Shown here piece by piece: positions 1 to 36,170 of a DNA stretch of 64,000 bases. Numbering within the stretch: the stretch's first letter is position 1; each line of letters starts with the position of its first letter. A model generated the notes under the pieces. The model searched no databases, was not told the DNA's origin, and saw only the letters and a list, made by a program, of their open reading frames with translations. Location: assembly GCA_964421635.1 (NCBI GenBank), contig CAYQWZ010000002.1, forward strand, positions 1,749 to 65,748, given 5' to 3'. The translations under genes were made by a program, and so were the position numbers. Source of the DNA: an uncultured Candidatus Saccharibacteria bacterium (GTDB taxonomy: Bacteria > Patescibacteriota > UBA1384 > CAILIB01 > JAUSJZ01).

Positions 1-332
1 TGGTAATCGTTGAGCGTTTAAAATTTAAGGCTCGGCTACTACATGACCTAAACGTAATGAGCTTGAAGAGTAATCAGTATTTCAGTATGCAACTAGTTGA
101 TATCTCACGGCAATTTGAAAAATGGTTGTCTTGGTCGCAGGCGCACTTAACCTTACCGGCAGAGAAAGGCATAGCCAGAGCCGGTTAGAGTGTTAACAAC
201 TTCTACCTGGGTGTGCGATTGCCTTGTTACGGCTACCGCCCCATATTGGGATAACCGCAAATTACCCTACCTTGTTTGCCAAGATTGGGTAATAGTGTTA
301 ATAAAGTCGGTAGCACACCGTACCGCCATCTA

Positions 333-455
333 ACAACTTCTGGTCGTTGACGCAGAACAATAGCACGAATGCGTACAACGTCAACTTAGATAATGGCAAC
401 ACGAACAACAACAATATGACGAATGCTAACTACGTTCGTTGTGTCAGGCAACGAG
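333..455 (+). repeat. Candidate DGR template repeat (TR1) immediately upstream of RT1. AAC/AAT-rich, translating to NNFWSLTQNNSTNAYNVNLDNGNTNNNNMTNANYVRCVRQ.
   Basis: Seen: run of Asn codons and a C-terminal YVRCVR-like end typical of DGR templates. It sits directly 5' of a DGR-type RT start. No matching VR found in the window, so boundaries are approximate. Confidence 0.45.
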
Positions 456-480
456 GGTCTCTCTCTGCCCCTTTAAAAAA

Positions 481-1563
481 ATGGAAACCTATTTTACCTA
501 CGCTAATTTATACCGTGCATATCTCGATTGCCGCAAAAGAAAATCGAACAGTCTGTACTGTTTGCAGTTTAATGAGCGACTAGAAGAGAATCTGCTTGAT
601 CTAGAGAAACAGCTACAGGCCTGCACGTACCGGCCTGGTCGCTCCATTGCTTTTATTGTGCAGAAACCCAAAATTCGCGAAATCTTCGCCGCCGATTTTC
701 GCGACCGGGTAGTTCACCATCTACTCTATAATTATCTGTCGCCCATCTTTGAAAAGACTTTCATTCATGATTCCTATGCCTGCCGGCGCGGTAAAGGAAC
801 GCATCGCGCCCGGCTCCGGCTGCAAAAATTTATGGTACAAATCGAGAGAGAGAGAGAGAGAGAGAGCGGCGCTGCGCGCCAATATTATCTGCAAATGGAT
901 ATTAAAAGCTTTTTTACTTCCATCGACCAGCAAATTCTATATGACCTAATTGTCAAAAAAGTTAAAAACGAGGAGATTTTATGGTTGGCGAAAGTCATCA
1001 TTTTTCACGACTGTGCTCGTGACATTCCACCTAAAATCCAAAGTAGCCCCAGTCTGTTCGCCCAACTGCCGGCCGATAAATCTCTCTTTACGGCCCCGCG
1101 TGGCAAAGGCCTCCCAATCGGTAATCTGACCTCTCAATTTTTCGCCAATGTGTATTTAGATCAGCTTGACCAGTTCGTAAAACATACCTTAAAAGCACAC
1201 CGTTATATACGCTATGTCGATGATTTTTTGATTATTGGAGAAGACAAGACGACGCTAACTCTGATGCGCGCTCAAATAGCCGACTTTGTCGCGCAGAAAC
1301 TGATTCTAACAATCCACCCTAAAAAACAACACATCAGACCGATAGCAGATGGTATAGATTTTGTGGGTTTTATCATTCGGTCAGATTATGTACTGTTGCG
1401 TCGCCGCGTGGTGGGTGAATGGCGCTGGCGGTTGCGACATTGCACAAACCAATACAAGTACCAGCAAATCGCGGCATCATATAACGCTCAAGCCGCCTGG
1501 GCGAATAGCCATACGTTGATTATATCTCGTACTGCTCGGCGGCAAATTTCGCCTGATCAATAA
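481..1563 (+). CDS. Reverse transcriptase, DGR-type (RT1)
   Basis: ORF 439..1563 with a likely start at M15 (atggaaacc at 481). Motifs seen: FIHDSYACRRGKGTHRA, PIGNLTSQFFANVYLD (the [I/L]GxxxSQ motif that distinguishes DGR RTs from group II intron RTs) and YVDDF (YxDD active site). Paralogous to RT2 at 35028. Confidence 0.75.
   Translation: METYFTYANLYRAYLDCRKRKSNSLYCLQFNERLEENLLDLEKQLQACTYRPGRSIAFIVQKPKIREIFAADFRDRVVHHLLYNYLSPIFEKTFIHDSYACRRGKGTHRARLRLQKFMVQIERERERESGAARQYYLQMDIKSFFTSIDQQILYDLIVKKVKNEEILWLAKVIIFHDCARDIPPKIQSSPSLFAQLPADKSLFTAPRGKGLPIGNLTSQFFANVYLDQLDQFVKHTLKAHRYIRYVDDFLIIGEDKTTLTLMRAQIADFVAQKLILTIHPKKQHIRPIADGIDFVGFIIRSDYVLLRRRVVGEWRWRLRHCTNQYKYQQIAASYNAQAAWANSHTLIISRTARRQISPDQ
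844..866 (+). repeat. (GA)11 dinucleotide repeat inside the RT1 coding sequence (encodes ERERERES)
   Basis: Seen directly: gagagagagagagagagagagag. Confidence 0.9.
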
Positions 1564-2563
1564 GTACTTGTTTGGCGTTGCCAAGAACCCCAAGCTCATA
1601 AAATGCTAAAATCGCCAATTTATACGTATTTACATTTACCGCTCGGAGAGAAAGGGGGAACGAATCGTTAGCGTAAAGCAGGGCGTTTGCCAAGATTCTA
1701 CCCGTTCGTTTATTTCCATCATTGAATGGTTGTAGATAGCAAATATAGGTAAATGCTAATAGGGTTTTTTCAAAAATGCTTTCCTTCTCATTCACAACAT
1801 CACAAAATCTTTGCAACTCATCGTTAATCTGGTGTTTATTATCTAATGGCTGGTAGACACTACCCGTAATACCGACAGCCTGCTCGCGTATATCAAATGA
1901 GAAAAGCCCTTTTGCTAAGATCTTGTGCAGATCAATAACCAAAGATGGGGTCAGTTTTTTAGAAAAGGCTTCTTTCTGGTCAGCGGTAAAATCAAGGGCG
2001 TGCTTATGATTTAAGATCATGACAGTCTCTTCCTTGCTTTTGCCCTTTCCCACTACGCCATCTTTAATTAGCGATTCAGTTTCTAGTAGTGAGTATGTAT
2101 TTCCTTCAAATTGAGATGACTTCCACGACAACTCAATTGTCATGCGTTCACGTTCGCGTCGAATGAGATCTGTTGGAGCGTTCAATAGTTTTTGCTTAAA
2201 TATCCCGTTAAATCGTTCTAGCTGCTTCACATCATCCTGAGTGAATAGAGGAAGAGAGCGTAATGTATCGAGCCGTGTAAAATCATAACGAATTGGCGGA
2301 CGATTTTCCTCACTAAATAGTTTACTTAATACTTCCTCAGAGAGAGTGACACCCGTCATTCCTAATGGGGTTGTCTGATATACCGTTGCGCGCGCCTCCC
2401 CTTTTCGAGCTACTACACCATAATCTACTAACTTACTTAAGTCGCGTTGGAGCGTACGTTCGGTGACATCTTTAAACTCCCCTCGTTCCATAATTTGGGT
2501 GAGAGTGTTCTTGCCTAAGAGAATCGTGGCAATGAGTTGTTGTTGACGATTTGTGTAGTTCAT
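1520..2563 (-). CDS. Fic family protein with N-terminal HTH
   Basis: ORF 1520..2599. The Fic motif LQPFNDGNKRTGR matches HxFx(D/E)GNGRxxR. The N-terminal region is a winged-HTH-like segment. Start is probably M13 (MNYTNRQQQ), because the upstream palindrome occupies the would-be RBS of M1. Confidence 0.75.
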   Translation of the reverse strand: MNYTNRQQQLIATILLGKNTLTQIMERGEFKDVTERTLQRDLSKLVDYGVVARKGEARATVYQTTPLGMTGVTLSEEVLSKLFSEENRPPIRYDFTRLDTLRSLPLFTQDDVKQLERFNGIFKQKLLNAPTDLIRRERERMTIELSWKSSQFEGNTYSLLETESLIKDGVVGKGKSKEETVMILNHKHALDFTADQKEAFSKKLTPSLVIDLHKILAKGLFSFDIREQAVGITGSVYQPLDNKHQINDELQRFCDVVNEKESIFEKTLLAFTYICYLQPFNDGNKRTGRILANALLYANDSFPLSLRAVNVNTYKLAILAFYELGVLGNAKQVLIDQAKFAAEQYEI

Positions 2564-2605
2564 AATGTAAGTGTACCTAGTATCCCGACATTTTGCCACA
2601 GTTAT

Positions 2606-6846: not shown

Positions 6847-7615
6847 TAATAGAGTCTAATGTGTAAACAAAATACAATCTGAATGTAGCGCGAAAAAAGT
6901 ATTTTTATTTTTTTCTCGCGCCAGACGGCGCGTTTTTGTTTCTCTAGGCATGAACATTAACAATTAATCTAATTAGTGGAATAATTATCACAATTATTCT
7001 TCCGATATAAAAAAGAAACGTAGAAACGCGTATTCATATTTACAAAAATGTAAGTCATTAATCATAATCTTCAAGCTAAGTTCGCTTAGCCTCAGAGATA
7101 GTGAGCCTCGCAAGAGGTCGAGTAAGAAATGACGTACGAGCACAAGGTGGATGCCTTGGTAGACACGACCGATGAAGGACGTCTGAGCCTGCGATAAGCT
7201 TCGGGGAGCTGGCAACAAAGCTATGATCCGGAGATTTCCGAATGGGGTAACCTATCTACTATATGTAGATGCTAGTGGGTGCGAGTCCCGCTAGACGAAG
7301 ACCTGGTGAACTGAAACATCTTATTAACCAGAGGAAAAGAAATAAATTAGATTCCGTTAGTAGTGGCGAGCGAACGCGGAACAGCCCAAACCACGTTTAT
7401 TAAATGTGGGGTTGTAGGGTAAAAGTGGAGATATCTCGTAGTGAAAAAATTAAGTTATATAACAGAAGGAACCTGGAATAGGACCGCCATAGAGGGTGAT
7501 AGCCCCGTATGTGAAATGTAACTTAACACTATGACTTTTAATCCTGAGTACCACGAAGCACGAGAAACTTTGTGGGAATCTGGGGCGATCACGCTCCAAG
7601 GCTAAATATAGTGTC

Positions 7616-7662
<47 letters not shown>

Positions 7663-8227
7663 GATGAGGGGAGTGAAATAGTATCCTGAAACCTTGATGC
7701 TTCCAAGCAAGTAGGAGCCGGCATGTCCGGTGACTGCGTGCCTTTTGTAGAATGCGCCACCGAGTTAGCCGTAGATTGCTGGTTAAGGCGATATTGCTGT
7801 AGCCATAGGGAAACCGAGTCTGAATAAGGCGAAATATAAGTAGTCTGCGCTAAACCCGAAACCGTGTGAGCTATCCATGACCAGGGTGAACCCTCTTTAA
7901 ACGGAGGGGGAGGCCCGAACCAGGAAGTGTTGCAATACTTTTGGATGAGTTGTGGATAGGGGTAAAATGCCTATCGAACACGGCAATAGCTGGTTCTCTT
8001 CGAAATATATTTAGGTATAGCCGTCAGTGTTCCTGCTTGAGGTAGAGCACTTAATGGTTGCTTTGGGTCTTCGGATCCGACACCAATAAAACTCCGAATT
8101 CAAGTTAGTCATAACTGACGAGTCAGACTGTGGGGGCTAAGCTCCATGGTCGAAAGGGAAAGAGCCCAGATCGCAAGCTAAGGTCCCTAACTAGTATCTC
8201 AGTGGAAAAGGATGTGTTATCTCCAAT

Positions 8228-8258
<31 letters not shown>

Positions 8259-9014
8259 TCCTTTAAAAAGTGCGTAAAAGCTTACTGGTCTAGCGGTTTA
8301 CCGCAAGAGATGATGCGCCGAAAATTTAACGGGGCTTAAGGTACTGGCCGAAGCTGCGAACTTGTTGAATTATTAAAATTTAGCGAGTGGTAGAAGAGCG
8401 TTCGTGTTGTTGTGAAGCAATACCTGTGAGGGGTTGTGGAACGGCACGAAGTGAGAATGGTGGCATGAGTAACGTTTCAGTCAGGTGAGAACCCTGACCT
8501 CCGAATATCCAAGGTTTCCTGGGCAACGAGAATCGACCCAGGGTTAGGCGGCCCTAAGGTGAACCCGAAAGGGGTAGCCGATGGACAGACGGTTAATATT
8601 CCGTCCCCTATTTTAGTGCAACTGTATGACGCATTTAGGTGGTAGCAAGTTCCAATGGGAATATCTTGCTGCGAACTGGGTGACTAGAAAAGTACAGGTT
8701 AAAGGCTAAAATGGACCGTACCGATAACCGACGCCGGTGGATAGGTCGAGTAGACCAAGGAGATCGGAAGAACCTTCGTTAAGGAACTCGGCAAAAAAGC
8801 GTCCGTAACTTCGGGATAAGGACTGCCAACCTAATTTATTAGGTAGGCCGCAGCGAAAGAATCCAGGCGACTGTTTAGCAAAAACACAGCTCCGTGCTAA
8901 CTCGTAAGAGGATGTATACGGAGTGACGCCTGCCCAATGCCAGAAGGTTAAGGGGAATGCTAACATTTTTTGAAGGCATGAACTGAAGCCCTGGTGAATG
9001 GCGGCGGTAACTAT

Positions 9015-9281
9015 TAAGGTTAGTAGTTATAAAATTTGGCCAAATGCTGGAAACTCTGAGTATCTTGCGCTACTATAGAATAAATACTAGTTCGGTATAT
9101 GTTCGGTAGTAAAAATGCGACAAGTGCAGACAATCAGCAGGAAAGACTCTCATATGAAAGAATCCTCAGAGACTATACGCCAAACTCCTGAATAGGAGAT
9201 GATATAGTCCGATCTGTATGGCGACATGCAGAGTTAGGCAGAAATGTCTAGCCCACTCAACTTGAGTGAGTAACAATAATG
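9015..9281 (+). mobile_element. Group-I-like intron 1 in 23S (ORF-less, ~267 nt), at about E. coli position 1917
   Basis: The exon sequence AACTAT|...|AACCGTCCTATGGTAGCG is interrupted. The 5' exon ends in U and the insert ends in G (the group I rule). Confidence 0.6.
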
Positions 9282-9315
9282 AACCGTCCTATGGTAGCGA
9301 AATTCCTTGTCGGGT

Positions 9316-9756
9316 AAATCAAGTCGGAAAAACTTGCCCGAAAGTTGCAGCAATGCAGCTTCAGTAAACTGGCTCAAAACGGTGAAGCCTAAAGTGGTTA
9401 ATCAAATTGTCATGCTGACGGTGCCACAATGGTAATACCGTGGGAAGTCTCTGCTTCGGCAGATGACCCCGTAACGACTGAGACGAAAGTCAAGACTCAC
9501 TACAGGTGGGTAATACGGCCAGCTCTTGCATAAAAAAGGATATATGAATTTTGCAGCTTACATTACCGGTTTCGTAGACGGAGAAGGGTGTTTCATAAAG
9601 AAACATTTGAATCCTCAAGTTTTAAAAGAAATCATTACGACTTCTTATAAAATGAACGATTCTGGGACAAGAAAGTTAAGCCAAGCAAAACTTCTAAGTA
9701 TCTTGTAAGATGAAGGTATAGTCTGATCCAACATGAAAGTGTTGTAACATTCAGTG
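9316..9756 (+). mobile_element. Group-I-like intron 2 in 23S (~441 nt), at about E. coli 1949-1951, carrying a LAGLIDADG remnant
   Basis: Exon CGGGT|...|AAGTTCCGACCCGCACGAATGGCG. It contains the shared core motif AATACCGTGGGAAGT...ACCCCGTAACGACTG closed by a UUCG-loop hairpin instead of an ORF. Confidence 0.6.
9526..9708 (+). pseudogene. Truncated LAGLIDADG homing endonuclease remnant (60 aa) inside intron 2
   Basis: A single LAGLIDADG motif (ITGFVDGEGCF). Too short to be a functional enzyme. Confidence 0.5.
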
Positions 9757-10304
9757 AAGTTCCGACCCGCACGAATGGCGTAACGATCTGGATACTGTCT
9801 CAACGAAGGATCCGGTGAAATTCCACTACCGGTAAAGATGCCGGTTAGATGCAGAAAGACGAAAAGACCCCGTGAAGCTTTACTATAGTTTGGCATTGTT
9901 GTATAACGATGTTTGCGCAGCATAGGTGGGAGACTTTGAAACTCTAACTTCGGTTAGATGGAGTCACCAGTGAGATACCACCTGAGTGTTGATATGCAAC
10001 TCACTCCCGGTTAAGACGGGAAGACAGTGTCTGATGGGTAGTTTAACTGGGGCGGTTGCCTCCTAAATTGTAACGGAGGCGTTCAAAGGTTTACTTGGCC
10101 AGGATGGAAATCTGGCAATAAAGTGTAAAAGCATAAGTAAGCTTGACTGCAAGACCTTCAAGTCGAGCAGATGCGAAAGCAGGATTTAGTGATCCGACAC
10201 TTACATGTGAAAGTGGTGTCGCTCAACGGATAAAAGTTACTCCGGGGATAACAGGCTTATTGCGCCCAATAGCCCATATAGACGGCGCAGTTTGGCACCT
10301 CGAT

Positions 10305-11226
10305 AATCCAAAGAAAGTCGAGAATAAAGTGACTCATAACGGTGGAGCCCTACTGTTTGTTCGGTAAATGTTTGGTATAATATACCAAATAATAGAATAA
10401 CAGGGGTAATACCGTGGGAAGTTACAAGACTGGCCATTATCAGCAGAATTGGTCTAAAATTAAAAGTTCGTTGTCGCTGAATAAACGACAGCAATCCTTA
10501 ATAATAGGCTCAATGCTTGGTGATGGCACTATGCGTATAGGCAAAAACGCAATTAATGCAAATTTCAAAGTGGAACAAGGCTTGAAACAAGAAGCTTATG
10601 TCTATTGGAAATATCGCATTTTGCATCCTTTTGTTTACACCGAACCAAAAATTAGCTATCGGTATGATAGTCAAGGGCAAAGATATCCAAAATCTTGGTG
10701 GTTTAGAACCATTAGATGCTCCCTTTTAACTGAAATATATAATCAGTTTTATACAGGAGAAGGATATCGAACAGGTAGAAAAATTGTACCTAATAATATA
10801 GTTAATTTTCTTGACCCATTAGCCTTATCAGTTTGGATAATGGATGACGGGTCATATAATAGAGGAAGAATAGATATTAGTACTTACTCATTTACTTTAG
10901 TGGAAGTAAAAATGTTAATAAGTGCAATATTTGAGAGATATGATATTCAAATGAATATGTATAAAGATCGTGATAAAGGCTATAGAATATATGCCAATCA
11001 AGATAATACTAAATCATTAATTGAAACAATCTCTCCGTTCATTATTCCTTCTATGAGGTATAAGGTGGGTTTTGTAACCCCGTAACGACTGGATCCTTAG
11101 TTCAGAAAGCTAAGGTGAAGATTCAGAATCTGAAACGATATATATTTCTGAATAACACGTCGCTGCTTGGACAACGCAGTCCAAGTAAAGGTATAGTCTG
11201 CACAGCTAGTAATAGTTGATAATGCG
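10305..11226 (+). mobile_element. Group-I-like intron 3 in 23S (~922 nt), at about E. coli 2504 in the peptidyl-transferase region
   Basis: Exon GGCACCTCGAT|...|GTCGGCTCATCGCATCC, with U before the intron and G at its end. Confidence 0.65.
10414..11085 (+). CDS. Double-motif LAGLIDADG homing endonuclease (223 aa, GTG start) encoded in intron 3
   Basis: Motifs LIIGSMLGDGTM and LSVWIMDDGSY. The ORF begins and ends inside the conserved intron core motifs. Confidence 0.85.
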   Translation: MGSYKTGHYQQNWSKIKSSLSLNKRQQSLIIGSMLGDGTMRIGKNAINANFKVEQGLKQEAYVYWKYRILHPFVYTEPKISYRYDSQGQRYPKSWWFRTIRCSLLTEIYNQFYTGEGYRTGRKIVPNNIVNFLDPLALSVWIMDDGSYNRGRIDISTYSFTLVEVKMLISAIFERYDIQMNMYKDRDKGYRIYANQDNTKSLIETISPFIIPSMRYKVGFVTP

Positions 11227-11387: not shown

Positions 11388-12152
11388 TACTTCACGAAGT
11401 AATTCGTGTTGACAATGCGGCTCATAACGGTGAAACCTTCATTATTGGCTGGTTAATACTAAGAACGTAACATAGTTTGGTCCAAAATTTGTTACAATGC
11501 TTGAGGACCAGAAAATATTAAGGCAATACCGTGGGAAGTCAATCTAATGTTAGATTTTCATATATAGCAGGTTTTCTTGATGGTGACGGGAGTTTAATGT
11601 TACAAATTAAACAACGTCCCAAAACAAAATCTGGGTATAGGTTTATGGCTACTATCTGTTTTTATCAAGATACGCGTCATGAATCTGGGCTTGTATGGAT
11701 CCAAAAAGTTCTAAAAATAGGTTATTTAAGTCGACGCAAAGATGGAATAACTGAATTAAGGATTAATGGGTTTACTCAAGTCAATGAGATATTAATAAAA
11801 ATATATCCATATATTCAATTTAAGAAAATTCAAGCAGAAGCATTAATTGAAGCAACGAATATCTTAAAAGATAAGAATGTAAATCAATTATGTGAAGCTG
11901 AGCTAGAAAGAATAGTAAAACTTATAATATTGTTAAGAAAACATAATTATAAGAGTAGCTATCGAAAAAGCTTGGTTAGTATAAGAAAAACATTAGGTTT
12001 GACCCCGTAACGACTGATCGAAAGAGAGAGTACATATTAATGTGCTAATACGCCGACTCCAATCAAAAAAGCTACAAAGATGGTTAATTAACCTAAATTT
12101 GAGTGATTGGATGAAAGTATAGTCTACGCCTTTAGAAATAAAGGATTTCGTG
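11388..12152 (+). mobile_element. Group-I-like intron 4 in 23S (~765 nt), inserted in the sarcin-ricin loop region (CCTAGT|ACGAGAGGACCGG)
   Basis: Exon continuity, a U...G boundary, and the same core motif family as introns 2 and 3 (CTCATAACGGTG..., AATACCGTGGGAAGT, ACCCCGTAACGACTG). Confidence 0.65.
11531..12010 (+). CDS. Single-motif LAGLIDADG homing endonuclease (159 aa, GTG start) encoded in intron 4
   Basis: Motif IAGFLDGDGSL. The size is I-CreI-like. Confidence 0.85.
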   Translation: MGSQSNVRFSYIAGFLDGDGSLMLQIKQRPKTKSGYRFMATICFYQDTRHESGLVWIQKVLKIGYLSRRKDGITELRINGFTQVNEILIKIYPYIQFKKIQAEALIEATNILKDKNVNQLCEAELERIVKLIILLRKHNYKSSYRKSLVSIRKTLGLTP

Positions 12153-13043: not shown

Positions 13044-13163
13044 TCTTGGTGATTTTAGCGGTGGGGGTACACCCGTTCTCATTCCGAACACGGAAGTTAA
13101 GCCCACCAGCGCCGATGGTACTTGCCGGGAAACTGGCCGGTAGAGTAGGACATTGCCAAGGCA
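13044..13163 (+). rRNA. rrf: 5S rRNA
   Basis: Conserved CCGAACACGGAAGTTAAGC core and a length of about 120 nt. Confidence 0.85.
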
Positions 13164-33215: not shown

Positions 33216-33290
33216 AGTCACGATCTAAAAGGATCCATCCATGTCAGCTAGGAATAGGCCTACGCTCACATGTATGCAGGAGTGAACAAA

Positions 33291-34277
33291 ATGCAACGGG
33301 AACCAATGTCGGAAGGCGACTTGGCAGACGCCAAGCGCATACTGACTCAACCCCTGGAAGGCGTCAGCCACGAGGGGTGGCAGTTGCTCAAGACGCGGCT
33401 CAGTGGTGTCATGCAGCAGATCGGCGACATCGGCCGCGCGGTGGAGCAGGAGCTGAAGATCCAGCAACTGCTGGGTAAGTCCGTCCTGCCCCTGACCGCA
33501 CTGCCCGAGGGCGGTTACTGTCGGGCCAACACGTCGTTGGTCTACGACTTGACCAACCGGCTGAGCCTTGACGAGCGGTTCGACCTGCTGGCGGTGCTGA
33601 TGGGCAATTTCGGCATCGACCGCTCCCAGCTCGATCTGGGCGTCGCGCCCGAGGGCGAATCCGGCTGGACGACCATGCTGACGGTTAACCCCGTCAACCT
33701 GGCCACGAAGCTGGGTCTCTCGGTCGTCCTGTCCGGCCTCGACAACGCCAAGAAGGTCGCTGCGGCCGCTACGGCGTACTGCCAGATGGTTGGGCCACTG
33801 GTGCAGAATCTGCCCAAGGCTCGGCCGACGGTCAGCGACTGGCTGCAGGGCCGGCTGGAGAGCGACTACATACTGCTTGAGCCGACCGCTGGTCAGCGCT
33901 GGCAGAACGTGGCCGTGCAGGAGCCGAACCGACCGCTCGTGGTGCGCCAGATGCGGTGCAATCCTGCGACCTGGTTTGCCAACGAGAGTGCGATCTACTC
34001 CCTGTCGCCGGACAACGTCTGTCACTTCACGGCGACCGATGTACAAATCGGCGACCTAGTGAATTTCGCCTGTCTGGCGGTCACCGAACCCTGGGTCTGC
34101 CAGGGCATCGCTGCGGGCACAGCGCCCCGGATCGACATTTCCGGGTGCCGCGTGTTCGACGATGACGGGTGGTCGGACTCGCCGTACTGCTGCCAGGGCG
34201 ACGATGGGGCATGGCTCAACTGCCATTGGGCTGACGATGCCAACGGCGACTACGGTTCGTTGCTCCTCCGGGAGTAA
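33291..34277 (+). CDS. DGR target (variable) protein. GC-rich (~62%), no signal peptide, with a Cys-rich variable region at its C-terminus.
   Basis: ORF 33270..34277, with the ATG at 33291 preceded by AGGAG. The last 40 codons coincide with VR. The opposite-strand ORF 33225..34046 is a shadow. Confidence 0.75.
   Translation: MQREPMSEGDLADAKRILTQPLEGVSHEGWQLLKTRLSGVMQQIGDIGRAVEQELKIQQLLGKSVLPLTALPEGGYCRANTSLVYDLTNRLSLDERFDLLAVLMGNFGIDRSQLDLGVAPEGESGWTTMLTVNPVNLATKLGLSVVLSGLDNAKKVAAAATAYCQMVGPLVQNLPKARPTVSDWLQGRLESDYILLEPTAGQRWQNVAVQEPNRPLVVRQMRCNPATWFANESAIYSLSPDNVCHFTATDVQIGDLVNFACLAVTEPWVCQGIAAGTAPRIDISGCRVFDDDGWSDSPYCCQGDDGAWLNCHWADDANGDYGSLLLRE
34152..34271 (+). repeat. DGR variable repeat (VR) at the 3' end of the target gene
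   Basis: A ~120-nt near-copy of TR (34628-34747). All ~17 mismatches fall where TR has A (A to G mostly, also A to T and A to C). Confidence 0.85.
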
Positions 34278-34754: not shown

Positions 34755-35123
34755 TTAGCTCAAACTTCGTATCCATCCTCCAAGCATCTTGCCGATCTCC
34801 TGCAATTGCTCCTGGAGGGTGAGATACTTAGTCATATTTAAACATTTTGTTTCGTAAGCTAAACGAACTAACAGCTTAAGCAGGTCAAGTTTGGCGCTTA
34901 GTGGTAAGAGTTGTTGTTTGCGCAAACCTTTTGGTAGACTATTAGTCAACAACAATCCTTTGAGCAAGCCTAAAGTTGTAGTCTGTAGTCTCTCACCTAG
35001 TGAATAACGTTCAACTTTCGGAAAAAGATGAATCCACAAATGCAACTGCCGATAGAAATCGAACAACTTCCCGACAATAGGAATGGGGGTAAAGCTGTCG
35101 GGGGGGGTATTCTTGGTAGTCAT
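34755..35123 (-). CDS. Avd-like accessory variability determinant (four-helix-bundle / 23S rRNA IVS protein family)
   Basis: LFPKVERYSLGERLQ...LSAKLDLLKLLVRLAYETKCLN...LQEIGKMLGGWIRSL matches the four-helix-bundle (TIGR02436-like) pattern to which Avd belongs. Opposite strand to TR and RT; its 5' end overlaps the RT2 start region. Confidence 0.6.
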   Translation of the reverse strand: MTTKNTPPDSFTPIPIVGKLFDFYRQLHLWIHLFPKVERYSLGERLQTTTLGLLKGLLLTNSLPKGLRKQQLLPLSAKLDLLKLLVRLAYETKCLNMTKYLTLQEQLQEIGKMLGGWIRSLS

Positions 35124-36170
35124 TTTAATATCAGTTTTGAGCGAGTTATTTCTTTAGAGAATTTGATTACAGCTTGGTATGAATTTCGTCGTGGCAAGAG
35201 CAAAAGAATCGACGTTCAACAATTTGCCAACAATCTAGAAGATAACATATTTGCCCTACATAACCAACTTAAAAATGGTTTGTATAAACACGATCATTAC
35301 AGTCAATTTAATATTAACGACCCCAAACCTCGTCTGATCAGCAAAGCTACTGTTAAAGACCGTTTGGTTTACCACGCCCTTTACAGGGCGCTTTATCCTT
35401 TATTCGACAAGACATTTATTTACGATTCGTATTCCTGTCGCAAGAACAAAGGAACGCATAAGGCTTTTCAACGTTTAAGAAAATTAATTTTGTCTTGCAG
35501 TCAGAACTACACCCAACCGTGCTTTGCACTCAAATGTGACATTTATCGCTTCTTTGATTCGATTGATCACAATACTTTGCTTAGTCTAATTGCTAAAAAA
35601 GTACATGACTCGAAACTACTGTTACTTATCAAAAACATCATTGATAGTTTCGAAACTTCTTCTAGTAAAGGTATGCCAATTGGCAATCTTACTTCCCAAC
35701 TCTTCGCTAACATTTATATGGATCCACTAGATAAGTTTATTAAACACAGATTAAAAGCCAAGCATTATCTTCGCTATGCCGATGACTTCTTGTTATTATC
35801 TAACTCACCAACAGTTCTTCATGGTTATCTCAAAGAGATCAACGCTTTTGTGCAAGATAGGCTGAAACTCAAGTTGCATCCTCATAAAATTAGTCTACGA
35901 AAACTGTCTTGGGGAATTGATTTTGTTGGTTATGTGGCTTTGCCTTATCAAACTAAGCCTAGAAACAAGACTGTTAAAAGAATATTTAAGAAGATTGAAG
36001 ATAATATTTACCACGAAAATATTGACGCGACGTTTAATTCTTATTTGGGTTATTTACAACATGCTGATTCAGAAGATCTGCAATTAGCACTTTTAGACCG
36101 CTGGAAATCGGTATCCCACACCGGTTATGGTAATAGATTATTGACTGACCATCGACCTTTTTACAGATAG
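35028..36170 (+). CDS. Reverse transcriptase, DGR-type (RT2)
   Basis: Motifs FIYDSYSCRKNKGTHKA, MPIGNLTSQLFANIYMD ([I/L]GxxxSQ) and YADDF. Adjacent TR/VR pair. Confidence 0.85.
   Translation: MNPQMQLPIEIEQLPDNRNGGKAVGGGILGSHFNISFERVISLENLITAWYEFRRGKSKRIDVQQFANNLEDNIFALHNQLKNGLYKHDHYSQFNINDPKPRLISKATVKDRLVYHALYRALYPLFDKTFIYDSYSCRKNKGTHKAFQRLRKLILSCSQNYTQPCFALKCDIYRFFDSIDHNTLLSLIAKKVHDSKLLLLIKNIIDSFETSSSKGMPIGNLTSQLFANIYMDPLDKFIKHRLKAKHYLRYADDFLLLSNSPTVLHGYLKEINAFVQDRLKLKLHPHKISLRKLSWGIDFVGYVALPYQTKPRNKTVKRIFKKIEDNIYHENIDATFNSYLGYLQHADSEDLQLALLDRWKSVSHTGYGNRLLTDHRPFYR

Follow-up and report, generated by a model that had tools for sequence, protein, structure and literature searches.

The window analysed here (the whole stretch of 64,000 nt) encodes at its left edge a reverse transcriptase, RT1, preceded by a template repeat, TR1, and the locus raises the question of which target such a diversity-generating retroelement (DGR) could diversify, given that the window holds no matching VR. 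The first-pass annotation had described the element as an orphan or remote-target DGR. We found that window positions 1–1563 are the downstream two-thirds of a complete, canonical DGR, and that RT1 itself carries a microsatellite that is a candidate slipped-strand ON/OFF switch. To this reading as a whole, that is, a complete canonical DGR with a putative slipped-strand switch in RT1 and the window copy ON, we assign a probability of roughly 85%.

RT1 (360 aa; window 481–1563, plus strand) belongs to the DGR subclass of RTs, as had been proposed from its sequence: it matches Pfam RVT_1 (E=1e-17), carries the motifs LPIGNLTSQ and YVDDF, and is 39% identical to RT2, the other DGR-type RT of the window (E=1e-65). 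Its best solved relative is 8ub7_A ('Reverse transcriptase', 328 aa, E=3e-43), which we take to be the BPP-1 bRT-Avd-RNA complex, whereas solved group II intron and retron RTs are matched only at E ~1e-12 or weaker. An identity as a group II intron or retron RT was rejected, as maturase and En domains are absent and the scores against the NCBIfam group II, retron and DRT models are far below their cutoffs, in libraries that hold no dedicated DGR-RT HMM.

An adenine-tolerant scan of the whole 64-kb window on both strands detected no match to TR1 of at least 30 nt, in agreement with the first-pass annotation, and since no VR lay inside the window the contig was extended upstream, as that annotation had suggested. 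The parent contig (L001) matches the window over 7,468 of 7,468 nt and encodes, in this order, a 751-aa target protein, bAvd, the TR and the RT, which is the canonical DGR cassette. The target gene (L001 7033–9288, window −2487 to −232) is located directly upstream of the Avd gene, and its 3' end contains the cognate VR (L001 9162–9285, window −358 to −235). The first-pass annotation had placed the target either before the start of the window or at some distant site; the former proved correct and the latter did not. The full bAvd gene (L001 9322–9708, window −198 to 188, plus strand) encodes 128 aa and is recognised by PF22296 (Pfam bAvd, 42.4 bits, cutoff 40) and by NCBIfam DivGenRetAVD (E=2e-13, with a score under the cutoff of that model). 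Only its 3' end, comprising the last 62 codons and the TAG stop, falls within the window (1–188, with frame +3 open from the window edge to the stop at 186–188), and this truncation explains why the gene had been overlooked and RT1 described as having no Avd gene next to it. The Avd-TR spacer (189–324, plus strand) includes an inverted repeat at 261–293, with 14-nt arms (ATTACCCTACCTTG and CAAGATTGGGTAAT, 86% complementary) and a 5-nt loop; a permissive Rfam search of the VR-Avd-TR-RT region returned no family. On the other side of the cassette, a Fic-domain gene (1520–2599, minus strand; Fic E=6.5e-14) is convergent with RT1, and the two share 44 nt at the 3' end of RT1. Related cassettes in L013/L014 and L063 adjoin Fic genes as well. 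The UvrD-type gene of the sibling strain L011, a landmark for sizing the DGR-containing indel relative to that strain, is absent from the window.

VR, Avd and TR were found together on five independent contigs (L001, L002, L007, L008 and L010), and an identical RT1 protein is present on five contigs. That RT1 and TR1 lack an adjacent target and act on a distant VR or on none, as a 64-kb window without a VR had seemed to indicate, can practically be discarded, since a VR differing from TR1 only at adenines occupies the 3' end of the gene in front of Avd, 235–358 nt before the window begins, and only a chimeric L001 could rescue the idea, against five independent contigs carrying VR, Avd and TR. 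With the canonical target-Avd-TR-RT arrangement, both the orphan or remote-target designation and the supposed lack of Avd fall. The apparent orphan is thus a canonical cassette that the window boundary happens to truncate, a caution for window-based scans.

The template-like segment previously marked at 333–455 is a genuine TR, although its exact bounds are 325–448 (plus strand, 124 nt). TR1 contains 43 adenines (~36% A) and 15 AAY codons, and 41 of the 43 adenines occupy codon positions 1–2; none of its A-containing codons can be converted to a stop, and ~10^24 protein variants are possible. All 18 mismatches between TR1 and the VR on L001 are at TR adenines (P=3e-10), comprising nine A to T, seven A to G and two A to C substitutions. 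The VR extends to the stop codon of the target gene and lies 683 nt upstream of the TR. Homology between TR and VR runs on to ~453 with a single non-A difference, a CAA codon in the TR corresponding to the TAA stop in the VR. The end of the pair is probably IMH*/IMH-like: the last 28 nt of the alignment are free of substitutions, then comes this one T/C difference, and the sequences diverge after ~453. No GC-rich inverted repeat or hairpin was found downstream of the VR; such a repeat occurs in only 34% of DGRs (PMC5758913). The 3' core that the first-pass annotation had seen to be common to TR1 and TR2 is present in the sequence, and action of TR1 on VR2 or of TR2 on VR1 is ruled out by at least 41 non-A mismatches.

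Among the consensus contigs, four assemblies share one VR and a fifth (L009) has another. The L009 VR differs from TR1 at 22 positions, 21 of which are TR adenines and one is not, and a comparison with the L001 VR gives 16 differences, 15 of them at TR-adenine sites. These differences count as a probable sign of past DGR activity. The target scaffold of L009 just upstream of the VR is only ~69% identical to that of L001, and the 1,117 nt downstream are identical; as the scaffold has diverged too, L009 stands for another allele or another strain, as opposed to simple diversification within a population. A related cassette (L013) has its own TR/VR pair, again with differences at adenines only. 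Scanning with a pattern in which each A of the TR may be any nucleotide gave 0 matches in GTDB genomes and, in JGI metagenomes, the known contig alone, and revealed neither a remote VR nor another variant of the VR. Additional remote VRs may exist elsewhere in the genome.

The 751-aa target consists of an N-terminal membrane anchor, 237-nt repeats at the DNA level and a DUF1566/Lcl_C-type C-terminal domain, which the VR overlaps, and is predicted to be surface-exposed. The C-terminus matches Pfam Lcl_C with E=2.7e-7 and 31.3 bits, below the 34.9 cutoff; PF07603 is present in most homologues of the target. A profile of this domain matches PDB 8q4e_A ('HbP1', E=4e-10), and the target C-terminus, compared with the PDB as a single sequence, matched nothing. 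An AlphaFold model of the domain, built from a 19-sequence alignment, had a pLDDT of 44, at which fold-search matches would be meaningless. The domain contains a ~70-aa insertion common to only three homologues, and its Y-V-R-C-V-R ending is common to many DUF1566 homologues. The earlier guess of a CLec-type VR would be consistent with the DUF1566/Lcl_C match. The closest named relatives of both RT1 and the target are Patescibacteria/'bacterium' MAGs.

Inside RT1, at 844–865 (plus strand), there is a pure (GA)11 microsatellite, the sole dinucleotide repeat of at least five units in the 64 kb. It encodes ERERERE in the loop that leads from the GKGTH segment, in the region of motif 2a, to motif 3. 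A change of one unit in either direction leads to stops 10–33 codons downstream of the tract; RT1 is in frame across it, and the window copy is therefore ON. Pure GA tracts occupy the same RT site in relatives, with 5–17 units that leave the gene in frame or in the +1 or +2 frame. At the protein level, 12 of the best 120 full-length homologues listed have (ER)n of 6–11 aa at this site, and the DNA underlying (ER)n in homologues was pure GA of 5.5, 16 and 17 units. Among the matches listed, ~17 protein clusters are in frame (ON) and ~27 out of frame (OFF), a ratio taken from two differently sampled sets of the best 120. At least 31 truncated OFF fragments were detected, covering both alternative frames, and their tails are +1 or +2 readings of motif 3.

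Close relatives differ in the tract itself. Homologue pairs that are 97–100% identical differ in tract frame or length, and both OFF frames are present within one 100%-identical lineage. In one lineage, a (GA)11 form found in three independent assemblies and a (GA)10 form found in a fourth have flanks identical over 282/282 and 254/255 nt. The homologous RT of L013 and L014, which agree with each other, is split at (GA)10. For the OFF alleles with DNA, both halves of the RT are free of stops in eight out of eight. One ON/OFF pair (P0148/P0271, from L064/L065) was rejected as a case of simple slippage, given an interrupted tract and a 29-nt insertion. An exact look-up of the RT1 products predicted for (GA)7 to (GA)17 in a collection of 15 billion proteins gave no match.

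The tracts are not confined to near-identical genes: RTs that share just 60–87% identity have kept pure tracts at the same site. A second, independent tract site lies between RT motifs 3 and 4 (L054, L055, L057 and L063), in other Patescibacteria and in Nanoarchaeota, and further independent tracts were detected at the 5' end of an RT and upstream of a target-like gene. GA tracts in or at RT genes occur in 4 of 12 CPR/DPANN loci and in 0 of 34 others (Fisher p=0.003). Of the features expected in a phase-variable gene, an intragenic, frame-shifting pure tract is found in RT1 itself, in the form of (GA)11; length polymorphism with ON and OFF alleles is found in the RT clade and not in the population of RT1, where every tract-spanning assembly has (GA)11. 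For frequent, reversible switching with a phenotypic effect, the OFF alleles that are otherwise intact would be indirect support. The overall pattern is consistent with ON/OFF switching of the DGR RT by slipped-strand mispairing. On balance, and with some reserve, we favour the view that the intragenic (GA)n is a contingency switch on the RT in this Patescibacteria DGR clade, arising convergently elsewhere in CPR/DPANN, with RT1 being an ON allele.

The alternative that survives best is neutral: a slippage hotspot in a tolerant RT loop would often kill a dispensable RT, so that the OFF alleles would be young pseudogenes and there would be no selected, reversible switch. An ON:OFF proportion of ~1:2 is what frame-neutral length drift predicts, an ancestral ERE (GAGAGAGAG) could seed slippage, RT1's own population lacks polymorphism, and some lineages have interrupted tracts or insertions. 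Drift of this kind, however, does not sit well with the maintenance of pure tracts at one site across RTs that have diverged to 60–87% identity, nor with independent tracts at a second RT site, at the 5' end of an RT and ahead of a target-like gene. Eight of eight OFF alleles are without other lesions, both OFF frames coexist in a 100%-identical lineage, and no other dinucleotide repeat of at least five units occurs in the 64 kb. We consider the neutral explanation possible and rather unlikely.

It is improbable that transcriptional slippage or ribosomal frameshifting keeps out-of-frame alleles expressed, the tract tuning the RT instead of switching it. Since (GA)n is stop-free in every frame, the tract can be read through in either alternative frame; the OFF frames nevertheless terminate 10–45 codons past it. 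In bacteria, homopolymeric A/T runs are known to give productive transcriptional slippage; runs of the GA dinucleotide are, to our knowledge, not canonical slippery sites. Still less credible is an origin of the tract lengths and frame breaks in assembly or sequencing errors at low-complexity sequence. Contigs L008 and L009 do end at or in the tract, and several fragments terminate inside it, but tracts of 20–34 nt are well within read length, the three-to-one recovery of (GA)11 and (GA)10 with matching flanks and the agreement of L013 with L014 are not expected of errors, and the same phenomenon appears across assemblers and sources (MEGAHIT, SPAdes, Logan and NCBI MAGs).

The cassette has the same order as the prototype DGR of Bordetella phage BPP-1 (mtd-avd-TR-brt), with a target carrying the VR at its 3' end followed by avd, TR and RT, and it shares with that system the adenine-only TR/VR differences, an AAY-rich TR and, probably, the IMH-like 3' divergence of TR and VR. 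In contrast to the phage-borne BPP-1 DGR, the RT1 element sits in a chromosome, probably that of a member of the Patescibacteria; its target, unlike Mtd, combines a membrane anchor and repeats with a DUF1566-type C-terminus, and the VR is not followed by a GC-rich hairpin. A gap of just 27 nt lies between the TR and the start of RT1, again unlike BPP-1, and any spacer RNA element must therefore overlap the RT ORF. We know of no microsatellite in the BPP-1 brt. With the Legionella-type DGRs that have DUF1566/CLec2 targets (category 'd', Wu et al. 2018, PMC5758913), the element shares a VR-bearing DUF1566/Lcl_C-type C-terminal domain, the protein ending seen in many DUF1566 homologues and a target for which surface exposure is predicted; it departs from them in the sub-cutoff Pfam score (31.3 vs 34.9 bits), the ~70-aa insertion and the host lineage.

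Another close setting is that of the CPR/DPANN DGRs (Paul et al. 2017; 'DGR clade 2, Patescibacteria', Roux et al. 2021, PMC8144416): the closest named relatives of RT1 and its target come from Patescibacteria/'bacterium' MAGs, the element is cellular, and here too one small genome has two DGRs. RT-gene microsatellites set it apart from what is described for these DGRs, as the literature searched contains no report of SSRs or microsatellites in DGR RT genes, an earlier mention in Paul et al. 2017 being possible. As in the SSR contingency loci of Neisseria, Haemophilus, Campylobacter, Helicobacter and Mycoplasma (PMC11868660, PMC3315296), the RT1 clade has an intragenic pure tract whose unit is not a multiple of 3, with ON and both OFF frames in close relatives, single-unit length differences and intact OFF alleles. 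It differs from them in that the gated gene would code for neither a surface antigen nor a restriction-modification methyltransferase, encoding instead the enzyme of a second, targeted hypermutation system, and in that the RT-tract hosts are uncultivated ultrasmall bacteria and archaea.

By analogy with the Bordetella phage paradigm, the cassette would be transcribed as an operon, and RT1 together with Avd would reverse-transcribe the TR RNA with misincorporation opposite adenines. The resulting cDNA would replace the VR, rewriting up to 27 codons of the ligand-binding tip of the putative surface protein. Slipped-strand mispairing at the GA tract may then switch the RT heritably and reversibly, turning diversification ON or OFF. 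Because the evidence consists of consensus contigs, we infer both mutagenic homing and switching.

Mutating a functional receptor without pause carries a cost, the regulation of DGRs in nature is largely unexplained, and how a good variant is 'locked in' is an open question, to which slippage in the RT gene would be a simple answer. DGR surveys that demand an intact RT ORF would miss or mis-score OFF elements, which make up ~60% of the clusters of this clade among those listed. Many uncultivated ultrasmall bacteria and archaea show the candidate switch pattern, and these are organisms presumed to rely on surface contact with hosts. If the GA tract does act as a switch, targeted hypermutation of a surface protein would itself be stochastically and heritably gated, a two-tier bet-hedging in which one hypermutable locus gates another. 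Lineages could then freeze a successful variant with the RT OFF and later resume diversification with the RT ON.

A search for proteins identical to RT1 retrieved five contigs. The longest (L001; ENA ERZ27248922 k141_246305, 17,178 bp) shares 7,468 nt with the window without a single mismatch, its positions being those of the window plus 9,520. Directly upstream of the window start, it encodes a 751-aa target protein (L001 7033-9288) and a 128-aa bAvd (L001 9322-9708), the last 188 nt of which are window 1-188. The first-pass annotation had seen no Avd beside RT1 and called the element an orphan or remote-target DGR; the missing Avd is thus an artefact of the window edge, and the orphan status gives way to a variable repeat (VR) that differs from the template repeat of RT1 (TR1) only at adenines and lies in the target gene. 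Its prediction of a target upstream of the window was correct, and extending the contig beyond position 1, as it had proposed, brought out target, VR and bAvd alike. The RT1 element is a canonical DGR severed by the window edge and, as a finding, ordinary. Just ahead of the target start codon, a strong terminator is followed by a promoter-like site (10/12 matches, extended -10 TG). From the target 3' end to the RT1 start, no hairpin resembling a terminator was listed by the scan on the plus strand, and this arrangement is consistent with target, Avd, TR and RT forming one operon. An inverted repeat at window 261-293 (14-nt arms, 86% complementary, 5-nt loop), between Avd and TR1 and some 30 nt before the latter, may be part of the DGR RNA.

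The RT1 ORF (window 481-1563) matches Pfam RVT_1 (E=1e-17), carries the LPIGNLTSQ and YVDDF motifs and is 39% identical (E=1e-65) to RT2 (window 35028-36170), the reverse transcriptase of the second DGR of the window, in agreement with the initial reading. Among solved structures, its best relative is 8ub7_A (a 328-aa 'Reverse transcriptase') with E=3e-43; group II intron and retron RTs reach about 1e-12, and the scores of all NCBIfam models for group II, retron and DRT fall far short of their cutoffs. Having a DGR-type RT, an A-only TR/VR pair, a VR at the 3' end of the target gene and an Avd, the cassette adds one more example to a familiar type of element, one that is abundant in CPR bacteria (PMC5758913; PMC8144416). 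The nearest named relatives of both RT1 and the target are MAGs labelled Patescibacteria or 'bacterium'. Four RT1 homologues of 492-613 aa (P0224, P0234, P0235 and P0242) have a MutS_I domain (PF01624) fused to RVT_1, an unusual architecture that places a DGR-type RT and a mismatch-binding domain in one protein. Three related DGR cassettes have a Fic-domain gene next to the RT, though not always in the same orientation: on the minus strand at window 1520-2599, overlapping the RT1 3' end by 44 nt, at L013 7966-9021 and at L063 1791-2666. A recurrent association of DGRs with Fic is possible.

TR1 (window 325-448, L001 9845-9968), with 36% A and 15 AAY codons, is slightly offset from the Asn-codon-rich segment first noted upstream of RT1 (window 333-455). 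With mismatches tolerated at no position but the adenines of the putative TR, a scan of both strands of the 64-kb window gave no match of at least 30 nt, as had been claimed, and one of L001 gave a single hit, at 9162-9285 (window -358 to -235), the last 41 codons of the target gene. Over 124 nt, all 18 mismatches fall at TR adenines, of which there are 43 (P=3e-10 under random placement); nine are A to T, seven A to G and two A to C, and all 18 are in AAY codons. Adenines occupy codon positions 1-2 in 41 of 43 cases, none of the A-containing codons can become a stop, and the 27 variable codons allow about 10^24 possible proteins. The homology ends at window ~453 in an IMH/IMH*-like 3' end, where a single difference not at an A sets CAA of the TR against the TAA stop of the VR. 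The 3' core common to TR1 and TR2, also noted previously, is real; since neither TR1 and VR2 nor TR2 and VR1 match (at least 41 non-A mismatches), it reflects family resemblance and not cross-targeting.

Near its N-terminus, at residues ~16-40, the target has a single strongly hydrophobic segment; its gene contains 2.4 copies of a 237-nt repeat. Its C-terminal region matches Pfam Lcl_C (formerly DUF1566) with E=2.7e-7 and 31.3 bits, under the 34.9-bit cutoff, and most of 829 target homologues carry this domain (PF07603). DUF1566-type targets form category 'd' (CLec2 VRs, Legionella-like) of Wu et al. 2018 (PMC5758913). An AlphaFold model of the C-terminal domain from a 19-sequence alignment was too low in confidence (pLDDT 44) for a comparison of folds; a profile of the same domain found 8q4e_A 'HbP1' in the PDB (E=4e-10). 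The target gene of the second DGR (window 33270-34277) is a GC-rich island, with 63.6% GC vs 39.9% for the window and 36.5% for RT2, GC boundaries near its ends and no hit in a Pfam search; it may be foreign or recently acquired. Elsewhere in the window, the 23S rRNA gene (7124-10378) contains a group I intron (8960-9231), and the 5S rRNA gene (13045-13161) lies 2.7 kb downstream of the 23S end, beyond ORFs at 10414-11085 and 11531-12010; the rRNA operon is unlinked or interrupted, as is typical of CPR-like genomes.

The same VR was present in four independent assemblies, all consensus contigs. A further contig, L009, is identical to L001 over 1,117 nt spanning the VR 3' end, Avd, TR and the 5' part of the RT, and its VR shows 16 differences from that of L001, of which 15 are at TR adenines. 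Over the 87 nt preceding this VR, identity to L001 falls to ~69%, the changes being mostly synonymous. L009 1-215, compared with L001 9075-9288, represents a third target allele, whose VR contains an abrupt boundary of recombination or homing. Two diverged scaffolds whose VRs equal TR1 at essentially every non-A position carry what appears to be the footprint of TR-templated homing in both targets. The sibling strain L011 (1-7557) is 97.6% identical to L001 3580-8253; its target homologue (P0007) has a similar C-terminus and no TR1-matching VR, and a UvrD-type helicase gene, absent from the 64-kb window, follows in place of Avd-TR-RT. The breakpoint lies inside the 237-nt repeats, and the difference is a DGR presence/absence polymorphism or a rearrangement. 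The more distant cassette L013/L014 has the same gene order and its own A-only TR/VR pair.

Within RT1, a pure (GA)11 tract (window 844-865), the only dinucleotide repeat of at least five units in the whole window, encodes ERERERE between the GKGTH segment and motif 3 (YYLQMDIKSFF). A change of one unit either way leads to a stop 10-33 codons downstream of the tract; alleles left in frame by the tract, such as RT1, are termed ON here, and the others OFF. In L013/L014, the homologous RT (72-77% identity) breaks into two reading frames precisely at a (GA)10 in the same site. Runs of (ER)n of 6-11 residues occupy this site in 12 of the 120 best full-length RT homologues and occur in 0 of 120 control proteins; the closest RT1 relative (87% identity) has only ERE between the same flanks. 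The tract DNA is pure GA in L061, L062 and L063 (5.5, 16 and 17 units), so the repeat is one of nucleotides and not a conserved peptide. With the N-terminal 121 aa of RT1 as query, short fragments were retrieved, of which 31 in 120 showed (ER)n at the site and then an out-of-frame tail; seven of these tails correspond to the conserved motif-3 region in the +1 reading and six to it in the +2 reading. Pooled clusters gave ~17 ON and ~27 OFF, a rough ratio given that sampling differed between the two lists. Tract length or frame varies within pairs that are 97-100% identical ahead of the tract. The clearest example in DNA sets L066, with (GA)10, against L067, L068 and L069, with (GA)11; neither allele is ON, and their frames differ, while the upstream flanks are identical in all pairs (282/282 nt) and the downstream flank is identical at 254/255 nt between L066 and L067. 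In the eight OFF alleles for which DNA was available, no stop codon interrupts either half of the RT.

Some RTs have a peptide such as 'SSCHSERSEESRSLERSLDSARDDNF' inserted just ahead of the tract and others 'RHCEEERRSNL'-like tails after it (P0148, P0176, P0271, P0346; L064/L065 ~570-660); the insert at this hotspot resembles a small repetitive (MITE-like) element. Independent assemblies end at the GA tract (L008 at L001 10358, L009 inside the tract at L001 ~10383) and begin in the 237-nt target repeats (L002, L007 and L008, at L001 7700-7738), which would fit heterogeneous lengths or collapsed repeats in both places.

Independently, a loop between RT motifs 3 and 4 is a second site of GA tracts: the species representatives of two Patescibacteria and one Nanoarchaeota have OFF alleles there, and a second RT of L063 has an ON (GA)28. 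In a frame-blind GTDB sample, a GA tract in or at the RT was found in 4 of 12 CPR/DPANN loci vs none of the 34 loci of other phyla (Fisher p=0.003). Other simple repeats lie around CPR/DPANN DGRs (L063 2883-2905, L032 1432-1467, L018 2079-2090, L045 490-498, L015 3960-3983): a (GA)11 ~120 nt upstream of a target-like gene, an (AC)18 that precedes an Aenigmatarchaeota RT by 2.5 kb, a C12 at the start (5' end) of a second RT, a G9 within a Nanoarchaeota RT and a (GA)12 abutting the N-terminus of a Saccharibacteria RT.

Together, a pure intragenic repeat, ON and both OFF frames in close relatives, differences of one unit between identical backgrounds, otherwise intact OFF alleles and a convergent origin of tracts at several sites make up the classical signature of slipped-strand phase variation. 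Phase variation of the DGR RT is the most likely reading, with a probability of roughly 0.55, and switching would then act on the enzyme of a hypermutation system. Two observations count against a switch: the population of RT1 itself shows (GA)11 only, and one ON/OFF pair is not explained by simple slippage. The main rival, neutral slippage at a hotspot in a permissive loop of an RT gene that can be dispensed with, is possible but distinctly less probable. It is conceivable, though unlikely, that OFF alleles are still expressed by recoding. In the literature searched, which included two surveys and did not cover Paul et al. 2017, the key paper on CPR DGRs, there was no report of simple sequence repeats in DGR RT genes, so we regard the feature as provisionally new. 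The GA tract in RT1 is a well-supported, apparently undescribed feature that opens DGR regulation to testing.
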